14,529 nucleotides of DNA from the NCBI GenBank assembly GCA_964247135.1, contig CAXTTL010000122.1, forward strand, positions 1 to 14,529, in the 5' to 3' direction. This document shows, one piece after another, positions 1,549 to 14,529 of the stretch. Below the pieces are notes generated by a model that worked only from the letters and a program-made list of their open reading frames with translations, searched no databases and had not been told where the DNA came from. Both the position numbers and the translations under genes were made by a program. The number at the start of each line of letters is the position of its first letter. Position 1 is the first letter of the stretch. Source of the DNA: an uncultured Deinococcales bacterium. GTDB lineage: Bacteria > Deinococcota > Deinococci > Deinococcales > JAAFIG01.

Positions 1549-2963
1549 GTTTGTATGAAAACAAAGACCCACGAATGCCGCTCGAGCGGGTTGCCATTCC
1601 TGAAAACAAGCATTTCAAGTTGCGCAATAAATATCACGCGCTTCTGAACAACCACAATCCAAAAGGCAATTTGTTGTCTGCCATTTTTGGTTATGTGTCC
1701 TTGTTCGGCACGACTTTGCTGGTCTTGGCACTCACCTATCAAGGTTTGCCTGCGTTGCTCGAGGCTCTGGGTGCGGCAAAAAACACTTTCTGGTACAACT
1801 TGGTTTACGGTTTGCTCGGACCTGTTTTGATGTTCTTGTTTGTGGCAGTTGTGGCATTGATTAACATTTTGATGTTGCGCAAATACCTGGCAAAAGTTCA
1901 AAACCGTTACGGACCACTGCATCACGGACCTGCGGGTGTGCTGCAAACCGTGTTTGACGCGCTCAAACTGGTGTCCAAAGAAGATTTCAGCCCTGGCATG
2001 GTTGAAGAAACGATTTTCACGCTCGCGCCGGTGATCGTGTTCGTTTCGGCGTTCATCATGATTGCTGTGATGCCGTTTGCGCCAGGTTGGGTCTTCTCGA
2101 ACGTGGATTCTGGAGCGCTGTTTATCATCGCCGCAGGGACGCTCGGTGGGTACGGCGTGCTGCTGGCGGGTTGGAGCATGAACAACAAGTACGGTTTGAT
2201 GGGTGGACTTCGTGCCGCCGCGCAACTCGTCAGTTACGAAGTGCCGCTTTCAATCGCGCTGCTTTCGGTGGTCGTTTATAACGGCTCGATGAACTTGACC
2301 GATATTGTCCAAGCACAATCGACCGTCTGGAACGTCTTCCCACTGTTTATTCCGTTTGTGATTTACCTGATTGCGGGTCTTGCCGAAATCAAGATGACCC
2401 CGTTTGACCTTCCAGAAGCCGAGTCCGAGCTTGTTGCCGGTTTCAACACCGAATACGGCGGAATGCGTTTCGGATTTTTCTTTGTCGCCGAATTTGCAGA
2501 GTTGTACCTGCTGCCCGCGATTCTCGCCATCTTCTTTTTGGGCGGCTGGCACGCGCCGAGCATTCCAATTCCCTACATTGGCGAGTTGGTCATTCACGCT
2601 GGCAGCGCTCCTGCGAATCCCTCGAGCTTCCAAGATTGGCTTCAAGTGGCATTCGGTCCAGGAGGTCTGTTACTGAACTTGCAATATGGGTTCTGGTCGC
2701 TTCTCAAGGGTGCGGCTGGCGTTTATTTTTACATGTGGATTCGTGCCACACTGCCGCGCTTTCGTGACGATCAACTGATGGAACTGTGCTGGAAGGGTTT
2801 GATTCCGCTGTCCCTGATCGGTTTGCTGCTGGCTGCCGTCTCGAGGCTCTACCCAGCAGTTGGGCAAATCCTTTCGTATGTCACGGCAATACCGTTGTTG
2901 TTGTTTGTTGTTTCTCGAGCGTTTGGTCTTAAACTTCCGAGTCCAAAAAAGGAGCTTGCATGA
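1545..2963 (+). CDS. nuoH: NADH-quinone oxidoreductase subunit H with N- and C-terminal extensions (472 aa)
   Basis: QNRYGP...GPAGVLQ..FDALKL..KE, NNKYGLMGGLRAAAQLVSYE, PFDLPEAESELVAGFNTEY, WIRATLPRFR. GGAGG upstream and ATGA overlap with nuoD. Confidence 0.96.
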   Translation: MSLYENKDPRMPLERVAIPENKHFKLRNKYHALLNNHNPKGNLLSAIFGYVSLFGTTLLVLALTYQGLPALLEALGAAKNTFWYNLVYGLLGPVLMFLFVAVVALINILMLRKYLAKVQNRYGPLHHGPAGVLQTVFDALKLVSKEDFSPGMVEETIFTLAPVIVFVSAFIMIAVMPFAPGWVFSNVDSGALFIIAAGTLGGYGVLLAGWSMNNKYGLMGGLRAAAQLVSYEVPLSIALLSVVVYNGSMNLTDIVQAQSTVWNVFPLFIPFVIYLIAGLAEIKMTPFDLPEAESELVAGFNTEYGGMRFGFFFVAEFAELYLLPAILAIFFLGGWHAPSIPIPYIGELVIHAGSAPANPSSFQDWLQVAFGPGGLLLNLQYGFWSLLKGAAGVYFYMWIRATLPRFRDDQLMELCWKGLIPLSLIGLLLAAVSRLYPAVGQILSYVTAIPLLLFVVSRAFGLKLPSPKKELA

Positions 2964-3967
2964 GTTTGCTCAAAGACATTTGGAGTGCGGTTTCTGGCGT
3001 GGGCAAGGGCATGGAAAAGACCTACGACGAGCAATTTCAACCCGTGTTCACCGATCTGTACCCGTTTGAACTGCCAAAACTTCCGCCCGTCAGCGTGCAA
3101 TCGCTGGCACTGATTCAAAACGAGGACGGCTCTGACCGTTGCGTGTCGTGCCTGGCGTGCGAGAAGGTCTGCCCGAGCCAGGTCATCACCATCGAACGCA
3201 AACGCAACCCTGCGGGCAAAGGTTTTGTGCTCGAGCGTTTTGACATTGATTTGGTCAACTGCATGTACTGTGCCGCCTGCGTCGAATCTTGCCCCGCACA
3301 GGCGATTGTCACGATTCAGGATTTTGAGATGAGCACCCCAAATTTGCAGAGTTTGAAAGCCGACAAGGAATTTTTGGATTTGCAAGGCTTGCGTGCCGCG
3401 CAGTGGTACAGCCCCAAAGTCGGCGTGGAATACCGCGTTGAAACTCCAGAGAACCCAACGCACGGCAAGATCGTCAAAGCGCCAGTCGAGGATCAACCTG
3501 GTGGAATGCAAGAGATGGAAAAAGCGCGTTTGGCTGCGCTCGAGCCTGCCAAACCTGTCGAGGCTAAAACTGCACCTGTCGAATCTGTAGGGGCGCCGCT
3601 TGCTGCGCCCGCCTCTGCACCCGCCAAGCCCGAACCTACATCTGCCGCTGTTGCTCCTGCCGTTGAAACCTCGAGCAACGCGAATCCGAAGATCAAACGG
3701 TTCGTTCCAAAAGATGCCGCCGTACCTGCGGTTGAAACACCTGCGACTGCTGTTGCCGAAACCGCAAAACTCGAGACTCCTACAACACCTGAATCCGTAG
3801 CGGCGCCGCTTGCTGCACCCACCACACCCGAAACGCCACCCGCGCCCGTTGCTGAGGCGGCAAAACCTGTCGAAACTGCGCCTGCCGAAACCTCGAGCGC
3901 ACCCGTTTCCGAAGAACCCAAAAATCCGAAAATCAAACGTTGGATTCCGAAAGACAAGGGGGAATAA
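2960..3967 (+). CDS. nuoI: NADH-quinone oxidoreductase subunit I (2x[4Fe-4S]) with a long low-complexity C-terminal tail
   Basis: CVSCLACEKVCP and CMYCAACVESCP motifs, FDID..C and DFEMS segments, position between nuoH and nuoJ, ATGA overlap. Confidence 0.93.
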   Translation: MSLLKDIWSAVSGVGKGMEKTYDEQFQPVFTDLYPFELPKLPPVSVQSLALIQNEDGSDRCVSCLACEKVCPSQVITIERKRNPAGKGFVLERFDIDLVNCMYCAACVESCPAQAIVTIQDFEMSTPNLQSLKADKEFLDLQGLRAAQWYSPKVGVEYRVETPENPTHGKIVKAPVEDQPGGMQEMEKARLAALEPAKPVEAKTAPVESVGAPLAAPASAPAKPEPTSAAVAPAVETSSNANPKIKRFVPKDAAVPAVETPATAVAETAKLETPTTPESVAAPLAAPTTPETPPAPVAEAAKPVETAPAETSSAPVSEEPKNPKIKRWIPKDKGE

Positions 3968-4995: not shown

Positions 4996-7176
4996 ATGGT
5001 TGATCTTGCCATTTTGATTCCCGTGCTGCCAGCGTTGGGCTGGTTGATCATTTCGATTTTCTCCAAGTCGCTTGGCAGCAAAGGCAGTGCTTGGCTTGCC
5101 ACGACTTTAATGGCGCTTAGTGCGGCAATTGCGATTGGTTTGTTCGTCGAAATCAGTAGCGCTGCGCCAAACTGGAAAGCCGAACCACTCGAGCAGTTGT
5201 ACAACCTCGAGCACAAAGCCAAAACGACACAAGCCGCAAAACCAGCCGAAACGCCAGCCGTCGAAGGGGTCGAACCAATCTCGGCATTGACCCAAGAGGC
5301 ACAAGAAAAAGCGAATTTGCTCCGTGATGCCTTGCCCTCGAGCAACCGTGCGCTCAGCGGTTTTCCTTTCGTGCGCGAATGGTCTTGGCTCTCGATCAAG
5401 GGCGAGGCTGGCTTGCCGTTCGGATTTTACTTTGACCAAACCGCCGGCATTGTGGTCTTGATGGTTTCGGTCGTCGCATTTTTGATTCACCTGTTCAGTG
5501 TGGGGTACATGGCTGGCGAGGAACGTTACCCAACTTTCTTTGCGTATATCAACCTGTTTGCCGCCGCGATGCTGGCGATGGTCATGGCAAAAAATTTATT
5601 CCATGTGCTCTTGTTCTGGGAAATCATGGGCGTCATGAGTTACCTCTTGATCGGTTTTTTCTACAAAAAGAAAACCGCCCAGCAAGCCATGAAAAAAGCT
5701 TTCATGACCGTGCGGGTTGGCGATCTGGCGTTCATGGCGGGTTTGTTCTGGCTGTACTCGAGCTTCAAAACCCTGGACATTCCCACGATTCTCGAGGCTG
5801 GCGCGAGCGGTGAACTCTTGAAGGTCTTGGGCGTGACGGCGGCTGGCGGCATCGGTTTGCTGCTGTTTATCGCCGCGATGGGCAAGAGCGCCCAATTCCC
5901 GCTGCACGTCTGGCTTGCCGACGCGATGGAAGGTCCAACACCAGTCAGCGCCATGATTCACGCCGCCACGATGGTCGCGGCTGGTGTGTACTTGGTGGCT
6001 CGAGCCTACCCGATTCTCGAGGTGGGGCATGTGCTGCCGTTTGTGGCGCTTATTGGTGGGTTTACCGCAATTTTCGCTGCAAGCATGGCTCCCGCCCAAG
6101 CGGATGCGAAGAAGATTATGGCGTTCAGTACGCTCTCGCAATTGGGTTACATGTTCCTGTCGCTCGGGGCGTTTGGTTACACGGCGGCGCTGTTTCACCT
6201 GCTGACCCACGCTTTTTTCAAGGCGTTGTTGTTCCTTGGCTCGGGCAGCATGATTCACGGTTCGGGAACGCAAGATATTTTTGAGATGGACGAACTGGGC
6301 AAATACCAGAAATGGACGCTCGGCACGGTCTGGGTCGGTGCCCTTTCACTGATGGGCGCACCGCTGTTTGCGGGTTTCTGGTCCAAAGATGAAATTCTTC
6401 ACGCCGTGCAAAGCGCCGGCGGACTGTACTGGATTTTGTGGCTGATGGGCGTCATCACCGCCGTTCTGACCGCGTTTTACTCCACCCGCATGATGATTAT
6501 TGCGTTTTACAAACCCAAGACCGCCAGTCCCTGGGCTGCCGCACCTTGGAACAACGAGGGCGAACCAACCCTGAACATGACCAAAGCCGAACTCGAGGAT
6601 CAAAAAGCGCACGAGCACGGACATCACGTCAGCGATCATCCACACGAGAGCGGTCCTGAAATGATTATTCCGTTGGTGCTGCTGGCGACGATGGCAATGG
6701 TGATGGGTTTTGTCGGGTCCCCGTTTGCCAACGGTTGGTTCCAGCGCTTTGTCTACTTCGGCGAAGCTCCAGAACTCGTGCCACTCGGCGCGGCTGTTCC
6801 AGGGTTCATTCTCTCGGTCTTGCTGGTCGCGGCTGGCGCGGGAGCGTCGTACATGCTCTACGGCGGCGCTCGAGATCATACCAAACAGATCGCGCCAATC
6901 TGGTTAACCCGTTTGTTGCAGCGTCGGTACTTCATCGACGACTTTTACTATCACGGTTTTGTCCGCCTTGCCGAGGACATTCAATATCCGCTCGCCTGGT
7001 TTGACAAAAACGTTGTTGACCGCATCGTGGACGGCTTTGGCATTGTCACGGGCGCAGTCGGCGACACGTTGCGCCGTGCGCAATCGGGCGCGGTCGGCTT
7101 GTACGCTTGGTTGATGGTCGTGGGCGGCGCGGTTATCGCGCTGGCGTTTGCCTTCGCGCAAGGGGGCAACAAATGA
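4996..7176 (+). CDS. nuoL: NADH-quinone oxidoreductase subunit L (antiporter-like)
   Basis: FWEIMGVMSYLLIGF, RVGD, GKSAQFPLHVWLADAMEGPTPVSAMIHAATMVAAG, HLLTHAFFKALLFL, GFWSKDEI, HPHES. RBS AGGAGG upstream. Confidence 0.97.
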   Translation: MVDLAILIPVLPALGWLIISIFSKSLGSKGSAWLATTLMALSAAIAIGLFVEISSAAPNWKAEPLEQLYNLEHKAKTTQAAKPAETPAVEGVEPISALTQEAQEKANLLRDALPSSNRALSGFPFVREWSWLSIKGEAGLPFGFYFDQTAGIVVLMVSVVAFLIHLFSVGYMAGEERYPTFFAYINLFAAAMLAMVMAKNLFHVLLFWEIMGVMSYLLIGFFYKKKTAQQAMKKAFMTVRVGDLAFMAGLFWLYSSFKTLDIPTILEAGASGELLKVLGVTAAGGIGLLLFIAAMGKSAQFPLHVWLADAMEGPTPVSAMIHAATMVAAGVYLVARAYPILEVGHVLPFVALIGGFTAIFAASMAPAQADAKKIMAFSTLSQLGYMFLSLGAFGYTAALFHLLTHAFFKALLFLGSGSMIHGSGTQDIFEMDELGKYQKWTLGTVWVGALSLMGAPLFAGFWSKDEILHAVQSAGGLYWILWLMGVITAVLTAFYSTRMMIIAFYKPKTASPWAAAPWNNEGEPTLNMTKAELEDQKAHEHGHHVSDHPHESGPEMIIPLVLLATMAMVMGFVGSPFANGWFQRFVYFGEAPELVPLGAAVPGFILSVLLVAAGAGASYMLYGGARDHTKQIAPIWLTRLLQRRYFIDDFYYHGFVRLAEDIQYPLAWFDKNVVDRIVDGFGIVTGAVGDTLRRAQSGAVGLYAWLMVVGGAVIALAFAFAQGGNK

Positions 7177-8729: not shown

Positions 8730-10201
8730 TTGTTGCGATTGTTGTTCTGCTGACCATCTCGGGTATTGTGACCTTCGTTGCGGCGGCGGGCAAAAACGCC
8801 GAATTGCCAAATGCAGGACAGGTTTTTGGTGGTGCGACCCTTGCCGTCTTCACCATCATGATGCTGCTGGCAGTTTTGGGCTGGAACGATCAAAACATCT
8901 ATTACGGCGTATTAAAGGCAGGTCCAATCGCCAGCCTCGGTACGCTCATCATGGGCTTGATTGGTTTGCTGGTCACGGGCGGCGTGATGTCCAACCCCGA
9001 AAAGTACCAGTCGGGCATCGGCGAATTTTTTGGTTTTATCATCTTCACGATTCTGGGCGGCGTGCTGATGGTCAGCACCAACAACCTGATCGTGCTTTAC
9101 ATCGGCATCGAACTCTCGAGTTACAGCACCTACATCATGGTCGGGTACTACCGCGATGACCGTTTCAGCAACGAAGCCGCCAGCAAATACTTTTTGCTCG
9201 GCGCGGTTGCCAGCGCCTTCTTGCTGTTCGGCATGAGTCTGGTTTATGCCGCCGCCACCTCGAGTGGCATTGTTAACCTCAATTACGAAGAGATCGGTCG
9301 CGCCTTGGCTGGCGTGGCTGGCAGTCCCGTCTCGAGCTTCCCGCTGGTCTGGCTTGGTCTCGCCATGATGCTGGTCGGTTTTGGTTTCAAACTTGCGCTC
9401 GTGCCGTTTCACTCTTGGACGCCAGATGCCTACCAGGGCGCTCCGAGCATGGTCGCGGGTCTCTTGAGCGTCGGACCCAAAGCGGGCGTCGTCATCGCCC
9501 TCTCAAGCCTTCTGACGAGCACTTTCGTGATTCAACCCGCGCTGCTCGACGGCTGGAAAAACGCCTTCATGTGGCTCAGTATCCTGTCCATGACCGTCGG
9601 CAACCTCCAAGCGCTTCAACAAACCAACATCAAACGAATGCTTGGTTACTCGAGCATCGCGCAACTGGGGTACATCGTGATCGGTGTCGCCGTCGGCTCG
9701 AGTGCCGGCACGGCGGCGTTAATTCTGTACATCACCGGTTATGCCATCACCAACATTGGCGCGTTCTTGCTCGTCTCGAGCCTGCGCGACGCTGGCGTGG
9801 GCGAAGAGATTTCGGATTACGCCGGACTCGTGAAACGCAGCCCAACCGCAGGTATCTTGATGGCAGGATTCTTCATGGGCTTGGCGGGCGTGCCGCTCTT
9901 GGCGGGTTTCCTCGGCAAGTTCTTGCTGTTCAAAAGCGCCGTCGATGCCAGCCTGGTGCCGCTTGCGATTGTCGCGGTGCTCAACACCGTTCCGGCTTAT
10001 TACTATTACTTCCGCGTCATCATCAACTCGGTCTTGCTCGAGCCTAAAGACGCTCGACCCATCGAACTGAATCCAACCGCCTTGGCGGTGCTGAGCTTCG
10101 CGCTGTTGGGCGTGGTGTTCTTGGGCGTCTACCCAACCCCAGTGCTCGACCTGATTAACAGCGCCGTTAAAACCATGCCGTTGTTCACCGCTTCAAGATA
10201 A
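8726..10201 (+). CDS. nuoN: NADH-quinone oxidoreductase subunit N
   Basis: LYIGIELSS, NEAASKYFLLG, GFKLALVPFHSWTPDAYQGAP, KRMLGYSSI, LAGVPLLAGFLGKF. ATGA overlap. Confidence 0.96.
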   Translation: MIVAIVVLLTISGIVTFVAAAGKNAELPNAGQVFGGATLAVFTIMMLLAVLGWNDQNIYYGVLKAGPIASLGTLIMGLIGLLVTGGVMSNPEKYQSGIGEFFGFIIFTILGGVLMVSTNNLIVLYIGIELSSYSTYIMVGYYRDDRFSNEAASKYFLLGAVASAFLLFGMSLVYAAATSSGIVNLNYEEIGRALAGVAGSPVSSFPLVWLGLAMMLVGFGFKLALVPFHSWTPDAYQGAPSMVAGLLSVGPKAGVVIALSSLLTSTFVIQPALLDGWKNAFMWLSILSMTVGNLQALQQTNIKRMLGYSSIAQLGYIVIGVAVGSSAGTAALILYITGYAITNIGAFLLVSSLRDAGVGEEISDYAGLVKRSPTAGILMAGFFMGLAGVPLLAGFLGKFLLFKSAVDASLVPLAIVAVLNTVPAYYYYFRVIINSVLLEPKDARPIELNPTALAVLSFALLGVVFLGVYPTPVLDLINSAVKTMPLFTASR

Positions 10202-10211
10202 ATTCAATACC

Positions 10212-10266
10212 ACCAAACCTCCCCCGCGCTCGAGACTCGAGTTGAGGGGGTTTTGGTTTTCATTTT
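10212..10266 (+). terminator. Probable intrinsic terminator of the nuo operon
   Basis: Imperfect hairpin ACCAAACCTCCCCC...AGGGGGTTTTGGT beginning 11 nt after the nuoN stop, followed by TTTCATTTT. Two CTCGAG sites lie in its centre. Confidence 0.65.
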
Positions 10267-10385
10267 GGTCTACCGCACGCGCTCGAGCCAGTTCAATCAC
10301 AAGCATTCACGAACCGAAATCAAGTTTGGTTTCAAATTCAAAATGAATTTCACAATGGCTTCAGATTGCCCGATGGTCATCCCAA

Positions 10386-11825
10386 TCAATTCAGCGTCCG
10401 TCCGCCGCTCGAGCCGAGCAAGGCATTGGCTTTTTGAATGTAACCCTCGAGCGTGACCGCCCATTCATCCGAAGGCTCGAGGTGCGGCAGGGCGATTTGC
10501 GCGTGGTACAAAATGCGGCTCGGTTCGCGCCAACCGAGTTGCACGAGCGTGTCGGCAATCATCTGGTGCGCCAGAACCCAGTCGCGGCTGGCTTCTGGCG
10601 CAAACTCGAGCACGCGGTTGTAATGCTCGAGCGCGTCGTCGAGGCGGTAGTATTCGTAGGCAATATTGGCGAGCAACAAACTGGCTGGAATGATCGCGCC
10701 CGCCTCGAGCGCGAGGGTGGCTTGGCGTTCGGTGGCGTCAAAATCGCCCAATCGGTACTCGAGTTCGGCAAGGTCGGCGAGGACTTCGGCTTTGTAGGGG
10801 TATTCGCTGTCAAGCAGCGCGGCGTTGAGGCTGCTTCTGGATTCTTCGGGCAGTCCGGCATCCATTTGCGCCAAACCCATTTCGTGCAGCGCGTAAGACT
10901 TGTCGGCGGCAGGTGCAAGTTGCACCGCCCGAGAGAACGCCGCCAGCGCCCCGGGCATGTCCGCCATCGCCGCCAGCGATTGCCCGTGCACGAGTGCCAC
11001 GCCAAAACTCGGTTCGCCGACTTCATCTTCGAGCGCTCGAGCCAGTTCCGCGCGTTCTCTGGCGAGGCTGGGGTTGTCCAGTGCCAGGTGCGCCCGGGCT
11101 TCCAAATGCAAACGGCTGGCGGCTTCCAGCGCTGGTTCGAGGTTGTTGTACAACCCTGCAACTTGCTCGAGGGTGCTCAGGGCTTCAAAGGGTTCTTCAA
11201 GTTCGAGAAGCATCGCGGCTTGATCCATCAGCAAAGCGGCTTTGTCGGTGCCTGTGGTCAAATCTGCGCCGTGACTGTATGCCTGTTCCGCCTCGCGCCA
11301 ACGCGAAAGTCCCTCGAGCGCCCCACCGCGCCACGACCAGTAACGCCAACGCAAAAACGCGGGCAGTTCCTCGAGCACAATGCCCTCAAGCAATTCGAGC
11401 GCGGTTTCGGGTTCACCCAGCGTCACCAAGGCGCTGACCGCATGAAATTTCGCCACGCTCGAGCCGCCGCGCGATTGTGCCGCCAACTCGAGCGCCCGCA
11501 TTTTGCGCGGTTCGGCATCATTGATGCGTTCACCCAATTCAAACGCTTCCAACTCGAGGGTGAACGCGATGTTCGCCGCCCGCAGCGCCATGTACGTCGG
11601 GTCTTGGCGCAAGAGCGGATTGCTCAAGACCGCGTTCGACAAACTCTGCGACGAACCCTCAATGCCTTCACGTCCGTAGAGCGTGTAAATGCCCGCCATC
11701 TCGAGGTCGCACAAGGCGGCAATGCGCGGGTCACGACTGCTTCTCGCGCCTTTCTCGAGCGTTTCAAAGGCAGTTTCAAAGTCGCCTTTTTCCAAGGCTT
11801 GATGGGCGGTTTGCAGGATATCCAA
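10386..11825 (-). CDS. Tetratricopeptide-repeat (TPR) helical protein, function unknown
   Basis: 479-aa Ala/Leu/Glu-rich ORF with repeated TPR-like helix pairs (e.g. GGALEGLSRWREAEQAYSHG, LAELEYRLGDFDAT, LANIAYEYYRLDDALEHYNRVL). TTG start is uncertain. Confidence 0.85.
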   Translation of the reverse strand: MDILQTAHQALEKGDFETAFETLEKGARSSRDPRIAALCDLEMAGIYTLYGREGIEGSSQSLSNAVLSNPLLRQDPTYMALRAANIAFTLELEAFELGERINDAEPRKMRALELAAQSRGGSSVAKFHAVSALVTLGEPETALELLEGIVLEELPAFLRWRYWSWRGGALEGLSRWREAEQAYSHGADLTTGTDKAALLMDQAAMLLELEEPFEALSTLEQVAGLYNNLEPALEAASRLHLEARAHLALDNPSLARERAELARALEDEVGEPSFGVALVHGQSLAAMADMPGALAAFSRAVQLAPAADKSYALHEMGLAQMDAGLPEESRSSLNAALLDSEYPYKAEVLADLAELEYRLGDFDATERQATLALEAGAIIPASLLLANIAYEYYRLDDALEHYNRVLEFAPEASRDWVLAHQMIADTLVQLGWREPSRILYHAQIALPHLEPSDEWAVTLEGYIQKANALLGSSGGRTLN

Positions 11826-11834
11826 AGCGTGTCA

Positions 11835-11840
11835 AGCATA
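11835..11840 (-). promoter_or_regulatory. Candidate -10 element (TATGCT) for a leaderless or very-short-leader TPR transcript
   Basis: A TANNNT hexamer lies 9 nt upstream of the TTG start and there is no obvious Shine-Dalgarno sequence. Leaderless transcripts are common in Deinococcus-Thermus. Confidence 0.35.
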
Positions 11841-11956
11841 ACCCGAGGAGGCGGGGATTGATTGAATTTGGTTTAAGGTTTGGCAAGTTTAGAAAATGAA
11901 GCTCGAGATCAGGCAATTCGGAGCTTGCTGACTGTTTTGCCGACCCTTTCGGTTTG

Positions 11957-12186
11957 AGCGACCCAAACCCGTCAGCGATGCCGCCCGCCAGGTGCGTTTT
12001 GGCATCAAGAAGGTGCTGCTTTCAGGGTCAAGAAGCGACCCAAGCCCGTCAGCGACCATGCCCGTTAGGTGCATTTTATGGTCAAGATAGGTGCTGCTTT
12101 CAGGGTCAAGAAGCGACCCAAGCCCGTCAGGTGCTGCTTTCAGGGTCAAGAAGCGCGTCAACGGATATGCAAGGTGCTGTAGAAGA
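11957..12186. repeat. Nested and tandem array of a ~37-40 nt hairpin unit (5 clear copies plus 1 degenerate)
   Basis: Intact unit 12112-12151 (AGCGACCCAAGCCCGTC AGGTGCTGCTTTCAGGGTCAAGA). Copies at 11957-12033 and 12034-12111 are each interrupted by a variant unit (11974-12010, 12051-12088). Degenerate copy at 12152-12186. Confidence 0.9.
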
Positions 12187-12243
12187 ATTAAATGGAATCC
12201 AAATAATTTTCTGACCATTCCTGAAACTCGAGCGGCACAAACC

Positions 12244-12281
12244 AAAAGTGGTGAACGCCAATAACGCGTTCACCACTTTTT
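12244..12281. terminator. Intrinsic terminator downstream of ilvE, potentially bidirectional
   Basis: Perfect 15-bp inverted repeat AAAAGTGGTGAACGC (12244-12258) / GCGTTCACCACTTTT (12266-12280) with a 7-nt loop and T-runs on both strands, about 25 nt past the ilvE stop. Confidence 0.9.
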
Positions 12282-12304
12282 AAATCTCGAGATTGGATTA
12301 CAAA

Positions 12305-13267
12305 TCAATTCGCGTAGGTTAACCAATGCTCGTAGCCTTTGGCTTGCCCACTGGTCGCCTCGAGGTAACGCTTTCTGATCTCGAGCGAGATTTTACCCGC
12401 CACGCCATTGCCGATCTTGCGGAAATCGATCTCGCTGACTGGGGTGACTTCGGCGGCGGTGCCGGTCATGAAGACCTCTTTGGCGCAGTACAGTTCCTCG
12501 CGGGTTGCCATCGTTTCGACAACCTCCAAGCCCATGTCCTTGCAAATCTGAATGACAGAGTCGCGGGTGATGCCGGTCAAATTGACGCTTCTCGAGATGG
12601 CGTAGACCGTGTTCTTGTTGATGAAAAAGAAATTCTCGCCCGTGCCCTCGGCAATAAAGCCGTTCTGGTCGAGCAGCAAACCCTCGTCAAAACCCGCCGA
12701 CACCGCGTCCATGCGAGCCAGGGCGCTGTTGACGTAATTGCCGCCCGCTTTGGCTTTGCCAGGCATGGCGCCTGCGGGCAGGCGCGTCCAGGCGGTGGTC
12801 ATGAGCCGAGCGCCCTTTTGAATGGCTTCATCGCCCAGGTACGCGCCCCATTCCCAACCCGCGACCATCGCCAGCACTGGGCAGGGCAGGGGATTGACGC
12901 CCAAAGTCTGACCGCCGCGCCACACCAGCGGACGCAAATAACATGACTTATAATTGTTGGCGCGAATCACCTCGAGATGGGCGTGTGAGATTTCTTCCTG
13001 GGAGAACGGAATGGGCATTCGCAAAATATGGGCGCTGTCGAAAAGGCGCTGCGTGTGATCGCCCAGCCGAAAGACTGCCGCGCCACGGTCGGTCTCGTAA
13101 GCCCGTACACCCTCGAAAACGCTGGTGCCGTAATGGAGGGCGTGGGTCAAGACCGAAACGGTGGCTTGTTCTTGCGGCACGAGCTTGCCGTTAAACCAGA
13201 TCATGCCCGCCTTGATGCCGGTGTCGCCGCCAACACTGCCTTTGGGTGCCTCAACTGTCTGTGTCAT
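12305..13267 (-). CDS. ilvE: Branched-chain amino acid aminotransferase (PLP fold type IV)
   Basis: HALHYGTSVFEGVRAY, YLRPLV, KAKAGGNY (PLP lysine), EGTGENFF, GITRDSV, EVFMTGTAAEVTPV. Start placed at ATG 13267 behind an AAGGAG RBS (13272-13277). Confidence 0.96.
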   Translation of the reverse strand: MTQTVEAPKGSVGGDTGIKAGMIWFNGKLVPQEQATVSVLTHALHYGTSVFEGVRAYETDRGAAVFRLGDHTQRLFDSAHILRMPIPFSQEEISHAHLEVIRANNYKSCYLRPLVWRGGQTLGVNPLPCPVLAMVAGWEWGAYLGDEAIQKGARLMTTAWTRLPAGAMPGKAKAGGNYVNSALARMDAVSAGFDEGLLLDQNGFIAEGTGENFFFINKNTVYAISRSVNLTGITRDSVIQICKDMGLEVVETMATREELYCAKEVFMTGTAAEVTPVSEIDFRKIGNGVAGKISLEIRKRYLEATSGQAKGYEHWLTYAN

Positions 13268-13308
13268 AAAACTCCTTGAGATGGCTCGAGCCATGTTGAA
13301 AGCGCAGT

Positions 13309-14529
13309 TTACCGTTTTTCGATTAGAGCGGTGGCATCACCAACGGGCAAGGGCGGCGCGAAAACATAACCCTGGGCTTGGTCGCAACCCAGAAAATGCA
13401 GTTTCTCGAGTTGATACTGGGTTTCGACCCCCTCGGCGAGCACTTCCAGACCGAGGTTGTGCGCCAGGGCGATGATGGTTTGCACCAGGGGAATGGCGTC
13501 GTTGCGGGTGGCTGAAATGCCGGAGGTAAATGCCCGATCCACTTTCAGCAAGTCCAGCGGCAGGCGTTGCAAACGCACCAAGTTGGAATAACCCGTGCCG
13601 AAATCGTCGATTGAAAACCGCACGCCCAGTTTACGCAGTTCAAACATCAGGTTTTCTGGGGTGGTGTCCCTGGACATGACCTGGGATTCGGTGACCTCGA
13701 GTTCAAGGTGTTTGGGAGCCAAACCGGTGCGCTCGAGGACTTTTGAGACATTCTCAACCAAATCGGTGTTCTCCAGTTGGACCGCCGAGAGGTTGACCGC
13801 AATTTTAAAATCGCGCCCTGCCTTGTTCCACTTGGCGGTCTGCAAACACGCCGTCTCGAGCACCTGCGCCCCGAGTTGCACGATCAAACCGCTGGCTTCG
13901 GCAAGCCCGATAAACCGGTCCGGCAGCACCAAACCGCGCTCTGGGTGATGCCAACGCACCAGGGCTTCAAAACCGATCAGGCGCTCCTCGCCCAAATGAA
14001 ATTGCGGTTGGTAAAAGACTTCAAACTCGTCACGCTCGAGCGCCCGACGCAACTGGGCTTCAAATTCCAGAATCTCGAGTTCGTGATGGTCGTGGTCGCT
14101 GGCAAAAAACCGCGCCCGTCCGCGCCCGGTTTCTTTGGCGCGGAACATGGCAAGGTCAGCCCGTGCGATCAGATCGGTGGTGGTTTCGGCATCGCCTGGG
14201 AAGTTCGCCACGCCCATGCAGGCGGAAATCGAAACCTCGTGACCGTTGAGGTAAAACGGTTGATTGAAACTCTCGAGCACCTTGCGGGTCACTCGGGTCA
14301 CGTACTCGCGGTCGCCGAGCATCAGAATGCCGAACTCGTCACCGCCCATTCGCGCCAGCAAATCCGTGCTGCGCAAACAGGTTTTCAGGCGTTTGGTGAC
14401 AATCCCCAGCAGCGCATCGCCCGCGTCGTGACCCAGGGTATCGTTGACCAGTTTAAAACGGTCCAAATCGATAAACGCCAGCGACAAAGGCTCGAGCCTG
14501 TGACGGGTGTTGTTGATGACCGTTTCGAT
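13309..14529 (-). CDS. GGDEF-EAL diguanylate cyclase/phosphodiesterase (5'-truncated)
   Basis: Frame open to the window edge. DLDRFKLVNDTLGHDAGD, RSTD I-site five residues before an intact GGDEF, then EALVRW, DDFGTGYS, KVDRAF, AEGVE and QGY. Confidence 0.96.
   Translation of the reverse strand: METVINNTRHRLEPLSLAFIDLDRFKLVNDTLGHDAGDALLGIVTKRLKTCLRSTDLLARMGGDEFGILMLGDREYVTRVTRKVLESFNQPFYLNGHEVSISACMGVANFPGDAETTTDLIARADLAMFRAKETGRGRARFFASDHDHHELEILEFEAQLRRALERDEFEVFYQPQFHLGEERLIGFEALVRWHHPERGLVLPDRFIGLAEASGLIVQLGAQVLETACLQTAKWNKAGRDFKIAVNLSAVQLENTDLVENVSKVLERTGLAPKHLELEVTESQVMSRDTTPENLMFELRKLGVRFSIDDFGTGYSNLVRLQRLPLDLLKVDRAFTSGISATRNDAIPLVQTIIALAHNLGLEVLAEGVETQYQLEKLHFLGCDQAQGYVFAPPLPVGDATALIEKR

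Follow-up and report, generated by a model that had tools for sequence, protein, structure and literature searches.

Gene-less hairpin repeats in a Deinococcales genome form a nested array that probably behaves as REP-like mobile DNA

Introduction

Between two genes of an uncultured Deinococcales bacterium lies an array of hairpins whose outer stems differ in sequence and nevertheless pair. Is such an array a structured RNA belonging to the locus, or a set of repeats that has accumulated there? The window, by which we mean the whole stretch of DNA analysed (14,529 nucleotides), had been interpreted in a sequence-only reading as carrying a repeated protein-binding site, placed in a small RNA (sRNA), in the 5' leader of the adjacent TPR gene or in single-stranded DNA (ssDNA). 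The two neighbours are both on the minus strand: a gene for a TPR-repeat protein of 479 aa (10386..11825), which lies outside the element, and a class IV aminotransferase gene (329 aa, 12305..13294). Our comparisons make us confident that the array is built from a dispersed repeat, mobile now or formerly, and not from a local RNA gene; that it is a pile-up of gene-less hairpin repeats with the behaviour of small, REP-type mobile DNA is, in our judgement, probable.

Architecture of the array

Five copies of one gene-less hairpin repeat, each 37-40 nt long, make up the array. At 11959-12153 they are arranged as three head-to-tail 40-nt units, two of which hold a 37- or 38-nt unit inside their loop. 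Read on the plus strand, a unit consists of CG, a 5-6-nt arm, the inner motif GCCCG-N(N)-AGGTGC, a T-rich bulge, the complementary arm and CAAGAAG. The 40-nt host unit U1 (11959..12035, plus strand) is split into a 5' half (11959-11975; stem GACCC at 11960-64, core ACCCG, in which position 11967 is A instead of G, loop TC-A, then G) and a 3' half (12013-12035; GTGC, followed by GGGTC at 12025-29 and the terminal CAAGAAG). Its loop is occupied by the 37-nt unit V2 (11976..12012, plus strand; CG-ATGCC-GCCCG-CC-AGGTGC-GTTTT-GGCAT-CAAGAAG). The second 40-nt host unit, U2 (12036..12113, plus strand), is likewise split, its halves at 12036-12052 and 12091-12113 enclosing the 38-nt unit V1 (12053..12090, plus strand), which has the stem GACCAT/ATGGTC and the tail CAAGATAG with an extra T at 12088. 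U3 (12114..12153, plus strand) is an intact 40-nt unit with the loop G-TC-A.

The geometry described in the sequence-only reading is borne out by these coordinates. All three stem pairs lie where it had placed them (GATGCC 11977-82 with GGCATC 12001-06, GACCAT 12054-59 with ATGGTC 12078-83, and GACCC 12115-19 with GGGTC 12143-47), and the minus-strand bulges AAAAC, AAAAU and UGAAAGCA correspond on the plus strand to the complementary GTTTT, ATTTT and TGCTTTCA. In the inner motif GCCCG-NN-AGGTGC the copies differ at NN alone, as expected from the claim that only the loop varies, the sole exception being the A for G at 11967. The nested insertions do land in the loop with the fold retained, V2 inside U1 and V1 inside U2. 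The string CGTC occurs in units by chance, when the loop reads TC.

Across the source genome, GACCAT/ATGGTC (the V1 type) is the commonest stem variant, with 42 copies, and the GATGCC variant (the V2 type) is confined to U-type hosts in all 5 of its copies. The right flank of the array, CGCGTCAACGGATATG.. (12154..12180, plus strand), is the remnant of a larger palindromic repeat with a U unit at its centre, and the same flank also trails U-type units on contigs C40, C67, C104, C229 and C244.

Covariation of the outer stem

The compensatory changes proposed for the outer stem hold across genomes and families, both in two alignments (A3 and A4) and in a larger set of anchor-parsed units. For the latter, units were parsed by sequence anchors only, so that pairing was not required, and 82% of outer-stem cells pair (77 unique arm combinations), against 54% for shuffled partners (sd 1.8, maximum 60%, 1000 shuffles) and 27-41% for slid registers. 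MAFFT alignments A1 and A2, in which the arms of different length classes fall in different columns, were excluded from the counts, and A3 and A4 were built per length class instead. Alignment A3 comprises 18 units, from the window and from 12 loci of relatives' genomes; 96.7% of its cells pair and five of its six outer pairs change on both sides. In A4, with 10 units from Deinococcus-like genomes, 98% pair. The covariation score of A3 was 0.344 versus 0.121, and neither this score nor that of A4 was reached in any of 500 shuffles, counts that, given the relatedness of the unit copies, are not to be read as probabilities.

Covariation of the outer stem across genomes and families indicates that the hairpin is under constraint, and to this extent the earlier suggestion of selection on structure is supported. 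The four inner pairs show no variation, and their pairing is therefore neither backed nor contradicted by covariation; the inner hairpin varies solely at the two middle bases of its loop. Single units fold as proposed, on either strand and with modest z-scores (-0.7 to -3.1), and the fold of the whole array is unremarkable (z -0.36 or -0.48).

Copy number and taxonomic range

We found approximately 90-120 copies of the unit in the source genome, or 88-140 depending on the pattern: 88 matches to the strict pattern, 140 to the core and 123 with a stem of at least 5 bp. A reversed-pattern control returned 0 matches in every genome searched. In a first sample the strict pattern was present in 18/18 genomes of the same family and in 0/22 from other families; in a wider sample it was present in 10/10 genomes of family f1, 8/112 of f3, 5/102 of f2, 1/14 of f4 and 0/62 of f5. 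Among the genomes searched, the range of the unit takes in the source family throughout, together with a minority of Deinococcus- and Truepera-like genomes at low copy number. Members of the family have anywhere between 1 and 217 copies, the majority of Deinococcus-like genomes lack the unit, and one Deinococcus-like genome carries it as a module of a repeat 167 nt long. Among the 80 matches listed in a scan that covered the genomes of all species, 77 are Deinococcota MAGs; we take the other three as chance, because their arms are unpaired.

The head (A/G)GCG and the tail CAAGAAG are found in all unit alignments, and AGCG, GCCCG-NN-AGGTGC and CAAGA are invariant across families while the arms drift. 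This invariance of a 13-nt core exceeds the usual level for REPs and could instead reflect a host function. A search of largely open-access literature returned no description of this hairpin family, and the best reading of the repeat is an undescribed REP-like, gene-less hairpin element.

Filled and empty sites

Excision of CG..CAAGAAG regenerates the exact empty sequence in three settings, namely host units, filled type-A elements and filled REP-C copies of either orientation, which implies that no target duplication is present; the insertion boundary is ambiguous by 1 nt. REP-B is represented by 109 empty and 9 filled copies, and REP-C by 58 empty and 8 filled. Insertion follows G, usually AG, and is often at the tips of GTAG REPs, of other palindromes or of the unit's own loop. 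The flanks form a stem of at least 6 bp in 22/98 units, compared with 2.9% when flanks were re-paired (maximum 7.1%, 200 trials) and 0/93 at displaced positions, and another 22/98 units lie wholly inside the loop of a host unit.

Occupancy differs among sister species at every orthologous site compared. One type-A element is filled by a unit in genome G003 and empty in G004 at exactly the corresponding site, unit content differs between G001 and G005 at one shared site, and a triple nest in G005 corresponds to a plain REP at that position in G000. Arrays are head-to-tail or nested, with mixed orientation in 0/90 and 0/136 loci of the source genome, and head-to-tail duplicates usually have identical loop letters. 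Given some 100 scattered copies and insertion into hairpin tips, including their own, the units look like very small mobile DNA; comparisons at a few sites, among which de novo insertion was not seen, suggest rather than display this mobility.

The folding strand and the hairpin tip

The strand evidence is mixed. A weak preference for minus-strand RNA had been drawn from the substitution at 11967, a single change in a disrupted copy, and does not extend to the genome as a whole, where the plus strand is mildly favoured. Among 46 near-identical ACCAT copies, in which variation is limited to the loop and one wobble position, the inner-stem T:A/T:G polymorphism (27 versus 19) mildly favours plus; the inner extension does so too, with 12 G-T versus 2 A-C and 24 tandem G-A versus 6 C-T, and the outer stem goes the opposite way (4 G-T versus 9 A-C). 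Folding energies are equal on the two strands for DNA, and for RNA the difference is only 0.6 kcal/mol.

The MS2 operator has a bulged A, 2 bp and a 4-nt, A-rich loop with A as its first and last base. The analogy drawn between this operator and the unit stands for the geometry of the minus strand and fails for the loop, which reads U-N-N-C. On the plus strand the tip reads c-GNNA-g in 112 copies and c-GNA-g in 37, and other loop lengths do not occur. The GNRA rule of RNA does not apply, because only 33 of the 112 GNNA loops have a purine at position 3. One review describes GCGNNAGC and GCGNAGC as extraordinarily stable DNA mini-hairpins whose RNA versions are much less stable, and places CCGAAGG in the ssiA priming signal (PMC13037366). 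The unit tips have exactly the two lengths of this motif and leave their middle bases free; the mini-hairpin is defined physically, not as a repeat family, and the units resemble it in sequence. Of the three options first put forward for the array, the evidence favours ssDNA.

Search for a mobilizing enzyme

No mobilizing enzyme was found for the units among the Y1_Tnp matches, unit-flanked genes, split-unit loops and IS copies examined. All four Y1_Tnp matches in the source genome were inspected and none is flanked by units. Classic REPs are present in the genome as well and flank two RAYT-like genes, REP-C the one on contig C136 and REP-B the one on C1, and the GTAG heads are a property of these separate REP-B and REP-C families. 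Genes recurrently flanked by units were not found; unit pairs 250-3500 nt apart enclose ordinary genes, two of which look, from their translations, like a LamB/YcsF-type enzyme and MetK. Nor was a gene found inside a unit loop, the 16 candidate pairs separated by over 1.6 kb proving to be separate arrays or weak matches. A unit-like motif is absent from the ends of the IS200-type copy on contig C249 of the source genome, no unit-like hairpin lies near the IS200/IS605 copies at five loci in G110, G161 and G208, and the unit-carrying genomes G104 and G197 gave no Y1 transposase match. Y1_Tnp occurs in 3/5 unit-bearing and 0/5 unit-free Deinococcus-like genomes, numbers too small to carry meaning.

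Relationship to known repeats and transposons

The units resemble REP, BIME and REPIN sequences in several respects. Both are imperfect palindromes of small size that number around a hundred or more, lie mostly between genes and often cluster; their stems differ among subfamilies without loss of pairing, and the ssDNA hairpin is the presumed active form of each. They differ from REP/REPIN-RAYT systems in lacking the GT(A/G)G head, their own head being (A/G)GCG and their tail CAAGAAG, and in that the four Y1_Tnp matches include no RAYT gene flanked by units. Unlike REPINs and BIMEs, they form no inverted doublets (0/90 and 0/136 loci of the source genome), and unlike REPs they have a two-tier hairpin, with an inner hairpin conserved across families, and insert into the loops of REPs themselves. 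To our knowledge, the movement of REP-like repeats is still largely a matter of inference, and for entire superfamilies, the CGTC REPs among them, a transposase is not known.

IS200/IS605 elements such as ISDra2 of Deinococcus move by 'peel and paste' and carry a pair of dissimilar subterminal hairpins and, in most cases, a tnpA gene. The units share with them the lack of target duplication, entry just 3' of a sequence resembling their own right end (..AG^, ..AAG^) and reliance on a hairpin in which one base is unpaired; here, in contrast, one hairpin is the whole element, and no related IS end was found at the C249 copy or at the five IS loci of G110, G161 and G208. Gene-bearing IS elements that target REP loops are also known (IS1397, ISKpn1 and ISPpu9/10), and for these, as for the units, REP hairpins are the preferred landing sites, but they belong to other families and the invader here is a gene-less 37-nt hairpin. 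We set aside classical MITEs, which are defined by terminal inverted repeats together with target-site duplication, since removal of a unit restores empty sites exactly.

The CGTC-tagged REPs are a palindromic superfamily with 8-9-bp stems, 4-5-nt loops and a terminal CGTC tag, mostly arranged as head-to-head dimers, and in the available text neither a dedicated transposase nor an occurrence in Deinococcota is reported for them (PMC3733652). The units share the palindromic form and the lack of an identified transposase, and differ in the remaining traits. The small noncoding repeats (SNRs) of Deinococcus radiodurans, which are mosaics, are alike by description in being dispersed, noncoding and of mosaic or modular build within the same phylum (PMC1978522, available text).

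How the repeat may spread

We envisage that a unit enters after G, usually AG, with hairpin tips as its favoured targets, be they those of GTAG REPs, of other palindromes or of its own loop, and that entry would leave no target duplication. Composites such as U{V} would then spread as wholes, and nested as well as head-to-tail arrays would result. Propagation would require both the outer stem, which covaries, and the inner hairpin, which is invariant, and the form that folds would most probably be ssDNA of the strand reading AGCG..CAAGA, with the c-GNNA-g or c-GNA-g 'mini-hairpin' at its tip. Such a route would involve an ssDNA intermediate and recognition by a conserved protein; that the spread is enzyme-mediated through ssDNA is plausible, if somewhat short of probable. 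In its most specific form, which we offer tentatively and regard as doubtful, the proposal is that the 37-nt gene-less hairpin is a complete mobile unit, and that a putative, vertically inherited Deinococcales enzyme grips the invariant c-GNNA-g inner hairpin, cuts after ..AG and pastes into the tips of other extruded hairpins, classic REPs among them. Hairpins pasted into their own loop would make that loop a cargo slot and permit recursive stacking.

The best-surviving alternative, unlikely as we judge it, is that copying errors at hairpins produce the arrays with no dedicated enzyme: in replication or repair a growing strand would stall at the tip of a hairpin, its 3' ..AG would pair with the AAG before another unit, one unit would be copied, and the strand would return via that unit's terminal AAG. 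A flank ending in (A/G/C/T)AG matches the AG tail of the unit in approximately 66/122 units, giving microhomology of 2-3 nt at both junctions with target duplication absent, the targets are hairpin tips, and the missing cognate transposase and the usually identical loop letters of head-to-tail duplicates are as such a process would have them. A passive process does not, however, account for the invariance of AGCG, GCCCG-NN-AGGTGC and CAAGA in families whose arms drift, unit boundaries are nearly constant and their phase fixed, and on the GTAG strand of REP-C the flank is CTG, which leaves only 1 nt of homology.

Placement relative to genes and replication

Gene positions were taken from a purpose-made, crude gene caller, by which only 5-10 of 90-95 loci fall inside predicted genes. 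Of the loci between genes that run in the same direction, 26 are sense and 23 antisense, and 18 loci are convergent versus 4 divergent. Gene 3' ends are adjoined by 58 loci and 5' ends by 31, against a background of 2157 versus 2449. Outside type-A hosts, orientation is 19 versus 18 beside 3' ends and 9 versus 14 beside 5' ends. An apparent orientation bias at 3' ends among relaxed units (50 antisense versus 25 sense) was rejected, as it comes from type-A hosts and loose matches and the strict count outside type-A is the 19 versus 18 just given. The copies show no orientation bias towards genes and are not tied to transcription. For the bias relative to replication that ssDNA transposition would predict, counting units, which are not independent, gives an odds ratio of 2.9 (p 0.015) and counting loci gives p 0.35, and GC skew is too weak for strand assignment (mean absolute skew 0.01; 66% of 10-kb windows agree with their contig).

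The excess beside 3' ends would suit a hairpin that, whatever its origin, serves the host and is retained for its binding, as DNA or RNA, by a conserved Deinococcales protein; its roles could possibly include protection of mRNA 3' ends, as for REPs, chromosome organization, nuclease- or SSB-resistant ssDNA caps, or priming sites. A core invariant across Deinococcales families and the near-identity of the 46 ACCAT copies outside the loop and the wobble position point the same way, as does the description, in the available text, of mini-hairpin DNA as nuclease-resistant, poorly bound by SSB and present in priming signals (PMC13037366). Against this stand the differing occupancy between sister species at every site compared, a copy number that runs from 1 to 217 within one family and is zero in most Deinococcus-like genomes, and random orientation relative to genes; the purging of harmful insertions would also be expected to enrich 3' ends. 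We regard a host-serving motif as improbable, more so than copying errors.

What remains is the structured RNA with which we began, an sRNA or TPR 5' leader on the minus strand with repeated protein-binding hairpins. The layout is suggestive. Directly after the aminotransferase gene, and outside the element, a perfect 15-bp inverted repeat followed by TTTT (12244..12280, minus strand) looks like the terminator of that gene and is conserved in G003 and G004, although a simple scan did not call it; the array lies between this hairpin and the TPR start. However, the region upstream of the TPR gene (11826..11914, minus strand; 88-92% identity in congeners) loses its conservation at around 11866-11914, before the array starts. 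The array is absent at the TPR orthologues of the three congeners compared, G005 and G002 being without any unit and G001 having different REP-plus-unit composites, some oppositely oriented. A screen for RNA data sets matching 9000-14529 yielded none, each of the 14 runs containing at most 0.10 of the sampled words. No promoter-like site was found in 11700-12400, and Rfam 15 covariance models gave only chance-level snoRNA/miRNA matches (E 0.09-4.4, far below gathering scores). A local RNA is thus very improbable: folding on either strand and the G-U pair that the 11967 substitution gives on the minus strand speak for it, but the same units sit at about 90 other loci in both orientations, the fold of the whole array has a z of -0.36 and the genome-wide strand signals lean towards plus.

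Implications for the family

With the array read as a pile-up of REP-like mobile repeats, the family gives unusually clean clues to how such sequences move: exact filled and empty sites, a fixed cut after G and a preference for hairpin tips. Nesting reveals which parts of the hairpin are dispensable, and the recognition core is conserved across several Deinococcales families. Given such clues, the partner protein should be findable and the mechanism testable. Should the most specific form of the proposal be true, the 37-nt hairpin would be among the smallest mobile units proposed. For annotation, the family counsels caution: a hairpin repeated between genes can covary strongly, and this alone is no sign of a regulatory RNA.

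The array and its family in the source genome

The array lies in an intergenic stretch (window 11915-12243) between two minus-strand genes, encoding a TPR protein (10386-11825) and a class IV aminotransferase (12305-13294). Three head-to-tail 40-nt units, U1 to U3, are read on the plus strand (11959-12153), each with the sequence CG-ACCC-AA-GCCCG-TC-AGGTGC-TGCTTTCA-GGGT-CAAGAAG. U1 and U2 are each split by a further unit directly 3' of the loop A and G; these nested plus-strand units are V2 (11976-12012; stem GATGCC/GGCATC) and V1 (12053-12090; stem GACCAT/ATGGTC). All coordinates from the sequence-only reading proved correct, and single units form the two-tier hairpin it had proposed on either strand, as RNA or DNA, with modest z scores (-0.7 to -3.1). 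Stability of the whole-array fold is ordinary (z -0.36 and -0.48). Next to the array lies an inverted repeat (12244-12280; perfect 15-bp stem, 7-nt loop, then TTTT) that is conserved in the congeners G003 and G004 and is probably the terminator of the aminotransferase gene; a simple terminator scan did not call it. The 14.5-kb window also contains 84 occurrences of CTCGAG, where base composition predicts about 4.

The array sequence matches about 60 of the 386 contigs in the 5.09-Mb source assembly. The core CCCG..AGGTGC occurs 140 times; in a search allowing at most one mismatch, 123 matches carry a flanking stem of at least 5 bp. GACCAT/ATGGTC is the commonest stem (42 copies), followed by GGTTTC/GAAACC and GACCC/GGGTC (14 each), GATGCC/GGCATC (5), GATCCC/GGGATC (4) and about ten rarer paired types. 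A subfamily comprising GCGAGTA/TACGAGC and relatives keeps a mid-stem tandem G-A/A-G while the adjacent pairs covary. The strict pattern AGCG-N5-7-GCCCG-NN-AGGTGC-N9-13-CAAGA has 88 matches in this genome.

Covariation of the outer stem

We parsed units on sequence anchors alone, with pairing not required. The 77 unique arm combinations have 82% paired cells in the outer stem, compared with 54% (s.d. 1.8) for shuffled partners and 27-41% for slid registers, and each stem position shows 3-5 pair types. Pairing reaches 96.7% in the 37/38-nt class (18 units, drawn from the window plus 12 loci in genomes of relatives), with both sides changing in five of six outer pairs, and 98% in the 36-nt class (10 units from Deinococcus-like genomes); the covariation score of each class was reached by 0 of 500 shuffles, counts that are not probabilities for copies that are mutually related. 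The four inner pairs are invariant and conserved as sequence, so covariation is silent on inner pairing. The claim that hairpin structure is under constraint is thus upheld by outer-stem covariation in both alignments and in the anchor-parsed set.

Insertion anatomy and turnover

Insertion sites were surveyed for 98 non-overlapping units. In 22, the unit is flanked on each side by one half of another unit's loop, and in 7 more on one side only. A further 20 occupy the tip of a different palindrome, mostly of the GTAG-headed families REP-B (GTAGGGTGCGC..GCGCACC) and REP-C (GTAGGGGCGCTGCTTGCTGCGCCC), 15 lie within the type-A host element (..GGGAGAAG^GGTYGGGGATGAG^), 5 adjoin another unit and 29 lie elsewhere, several at weaker palindromes. 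The flanks form a stem of at least 6 bp in 22 of the 98 units, compared with 2.9% for re-paired flanks (maximum 7.1%, 200 trials) and 0 of 93 positions displaced by 300 nt.

Given that empty copies far outnumber filled ones (REP-B, 109 versus 9; REP-C, 58 versus 8), the REPs were invaded by the unit, not the unit by REPs. Deleting CG..CAAGAAG from filled REP-C, where units of both orientations occupy the same phosphodiester, yields the exact empty sequence, and the same deletion restores empty type A and empty host units; insertion therefore involves no target duplication, with a boundary ambiguous by one base. Of 46 copies of the commonest type, 44 are inserted directly after a G, itself usually preceded by A. 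All five copies of the GATGCC variant lie inside a U host and none outside, which indicates that composites spread as wholes.

Type A itself consists of ACCCTCATCCCCRACC, then the hairpin CCCTTCTCCC-N4-6-GGGAGAAGGG, then a T-run (locus L018, reverse complement 1395-1440; L019, 1355-1440; many contigs of the source genome). The genome has 118 occurrences of its tail motif; type A often hosts the unit and resembles a dispersed terminator module sited after genes. Elsewhere in the window, two GTAG REP-C-like palindromes (3587-3610 and 3797-3820) sit in the proline/alanine-rich tail of a predicted open frame (2960-3967), beside NADH-dehydrogenase genes; in the homologous region of a related genome, G018 (L033, about 1455-1520), a REP-like palindrome whose loop holds a unit occupies the same predicted tail.

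All orthologous sites compared differ between species. The TPR and aminotransferase genes lie on separate contigs with other neighbours in five of five congeners. Conservation upstream of the TPR orthologues ends at window 11914 in G005, 11874 in G001 and 11866 in G002; G001 carries different REP-plus-unit composites there, and no units were found upstream of the orthologue in G005 or G002. Upstream of the aminotransferase gene, type A is empty in G004, and the same element is filled by a unit at ..GGGAGAAG^ in G003. Shared sites in G001 and G005 hold different units, and a site with a triple nest in G005 is a plain REP in the source genome. The array at 11915-12243 sits at a gene-order break.

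Mechanism of spread

HUH/Y1 enzymes transpose single strands by 'peel and paste'. The junctions of the unit (flank cut 3' of ..AG, element end cut 3' of ..AAG, no duplication) and its hairpin with an unpaired T resemble those of that mechanism. Our enzyme search found no gene recurrently bracketed by units or carried in a unit loop; the two RAYT-like genes have REP-C and REP-B, and no units, as their flanking repeats, IS200/IS605 copies in three other genomes have ends without a unit-like hairpin, and a Y1 transposase search gave no match in two unit-bearing genomes. Contig C5 of the source genome (about 5360-5390, L003) holds a weak, short Y1-transposase-like frame with a GTAG..CTAC palindrome mid-frame, possibly a RAYT gene that a REP has interrupted. 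GC skew, used for a replication-strand bias test, is very weak in this genome.

The leading alternative is template switching guided by microhomology at stalled hairpins, which accounts for the AG at both junctions and for the absence of a transposase from our findings, but leaves the invariance of the core across families unaccounted for. Alternatively, the hairpin may serve the host through putative binding.

Range across genomes

The strict pattern is present in 18 of 18 same-family genomes (1 to 217 matches per genome), and a first sample of 22 genomes drawn from four other families contained no match. In a wider sample of 300 Deinococcota genomes, family f1 was positive in 10 of 10, f3 in 8 of 112, f2 in 5 of 102, f4 in 1 of 14 and f5 in 0 of 62; a reversed-pattern control gave 0 matches in every genome searched. 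Scanning all bacteria and archaea, one genome per species, returned at least 116 matching stretches, 80 of them listed; 77 of these 80 come from MAGs labelled Deinococcales, Deinococcota, Deinococcaceae, Truepera or Trueperaceae. Complementary arms are absent from the three outsiders among the matches listed (Streptomyces, an Acidobacteriota MAG and a Blastocatellia MAG), which were taken as chance.

The unit forms the central module of a 167-nt repeat with at least 6 copies in a Deinococcus-like genome, G208 (L043-L047). Units, some nested, also lie within a repeat of about 900 nt in G197 (L040-L042; for example L041, 3420-4310), composed of short broken reading frames; from its sequence, this repeat looks like a decayed transposase gene.

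Placement, strand and folding form

Strict criteria, with gene positions from a purpose-made crude gene caller, gave 103 units in 90 loci: 26 sense and 23 antisense between same-direction genes, 18 convergent, 4 divergent, 10 inside called genes and 9 at contig edges. No locus among the 90 mixes orientations. Loci adjoin a gene 3' end in 58 cases and a 5' end in 31 (background 2157 versus 2449). Outside type A, orientation is 19 versus 18 beside 3' ends and 9 versus 14 beside 5' ends; an antisense bias beside 3' ends in a looser unit set was traced to the type-A element once strict units were used. An sRNA or a 5' leader of the TPR gene, as had been suggested, is not borne out, given the genome-wide family, the orientation-neutral placement and the TPR orthologues without units in G005 and G002.

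The sequence-only reading had weakly preferred the minus strand from a substitution at 11967. That substitution itself does favour minus, but several signals favour plus. In 46 ACCAT copies, T9 faces A 27 times and G 19 times, which points to the plus strand because T:A/T:G is neutral on that strand only. The inner extension shows G-T 12 versus A-C 2 and tandem G-A 24 versus C-T 6, and RNA energy slightly favours plus (-11.0 versus -10.4 kcal/mol, with plus the more stable strand for 56 of 74 units). The outer stem runs counter (G-T 4 versus A-C 9), and DNA folding energy shows no strand difference.

Loops are GNNA in 112 copies and GNA in 37, a quarter of units, with no other length. The third loop position is a purine in only 33 of 112, so the loops depart from the RNA GNRA rule. 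With its plus-strand tip of c-GNNA-g or c-GNA-g, the unit carries the 'mini-hairpin DNA' motif, described in excerpts of PMC13037366 (also PMC3201870) as exceptionally stable in DNA form whatever the middle base, and far less so in RNA form; the excerpts of PMC13037366 place it in single-strand priming signals, including CCGAAGG in ssiA. Together, tip motif and orientation-neutral placement tip the reading towards single-stranded DNA as the folding form; of the earlier interpretation, the constrained structure is supported and this option is the favoured one, and an sRNA or TPR leader is not borne out.

Among 46 ACCAT copies that are otherwise almost identical, the middle two loop bases (window 11988-89 in V2, 12065-66 in V1) have entropies of 1.35 and 1.59 bits, compared with 0-0.5 bits at most other positions. 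Counted over 112 copies, the first middle base is a pyrimidine in 106. The loop is either a mutation hot spot or the sole unconstrained site in copies all under constraint.

Relation to known repeats

REP/BIME/REPIN elements are the closest kind, yet the unit departs from three of their four defining features: tag, cognate RAYT and inverted doublets. CGTC REPs, in excerpts of PMC3733652, resemble the unit in that no dedicated transposase was found, but differ in anatomy and host range. The 'mosaic SNRs' of D. radiodurans may be related, set beside the unit by their description in excerpts of PMC1978522 and not by sequence. A literature search of incomplete coverage found no description of the family. 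The initial observation is confirmed and extended: the unit is a variant of the small palindromic mobile repeat kind, with a testable mechanism.
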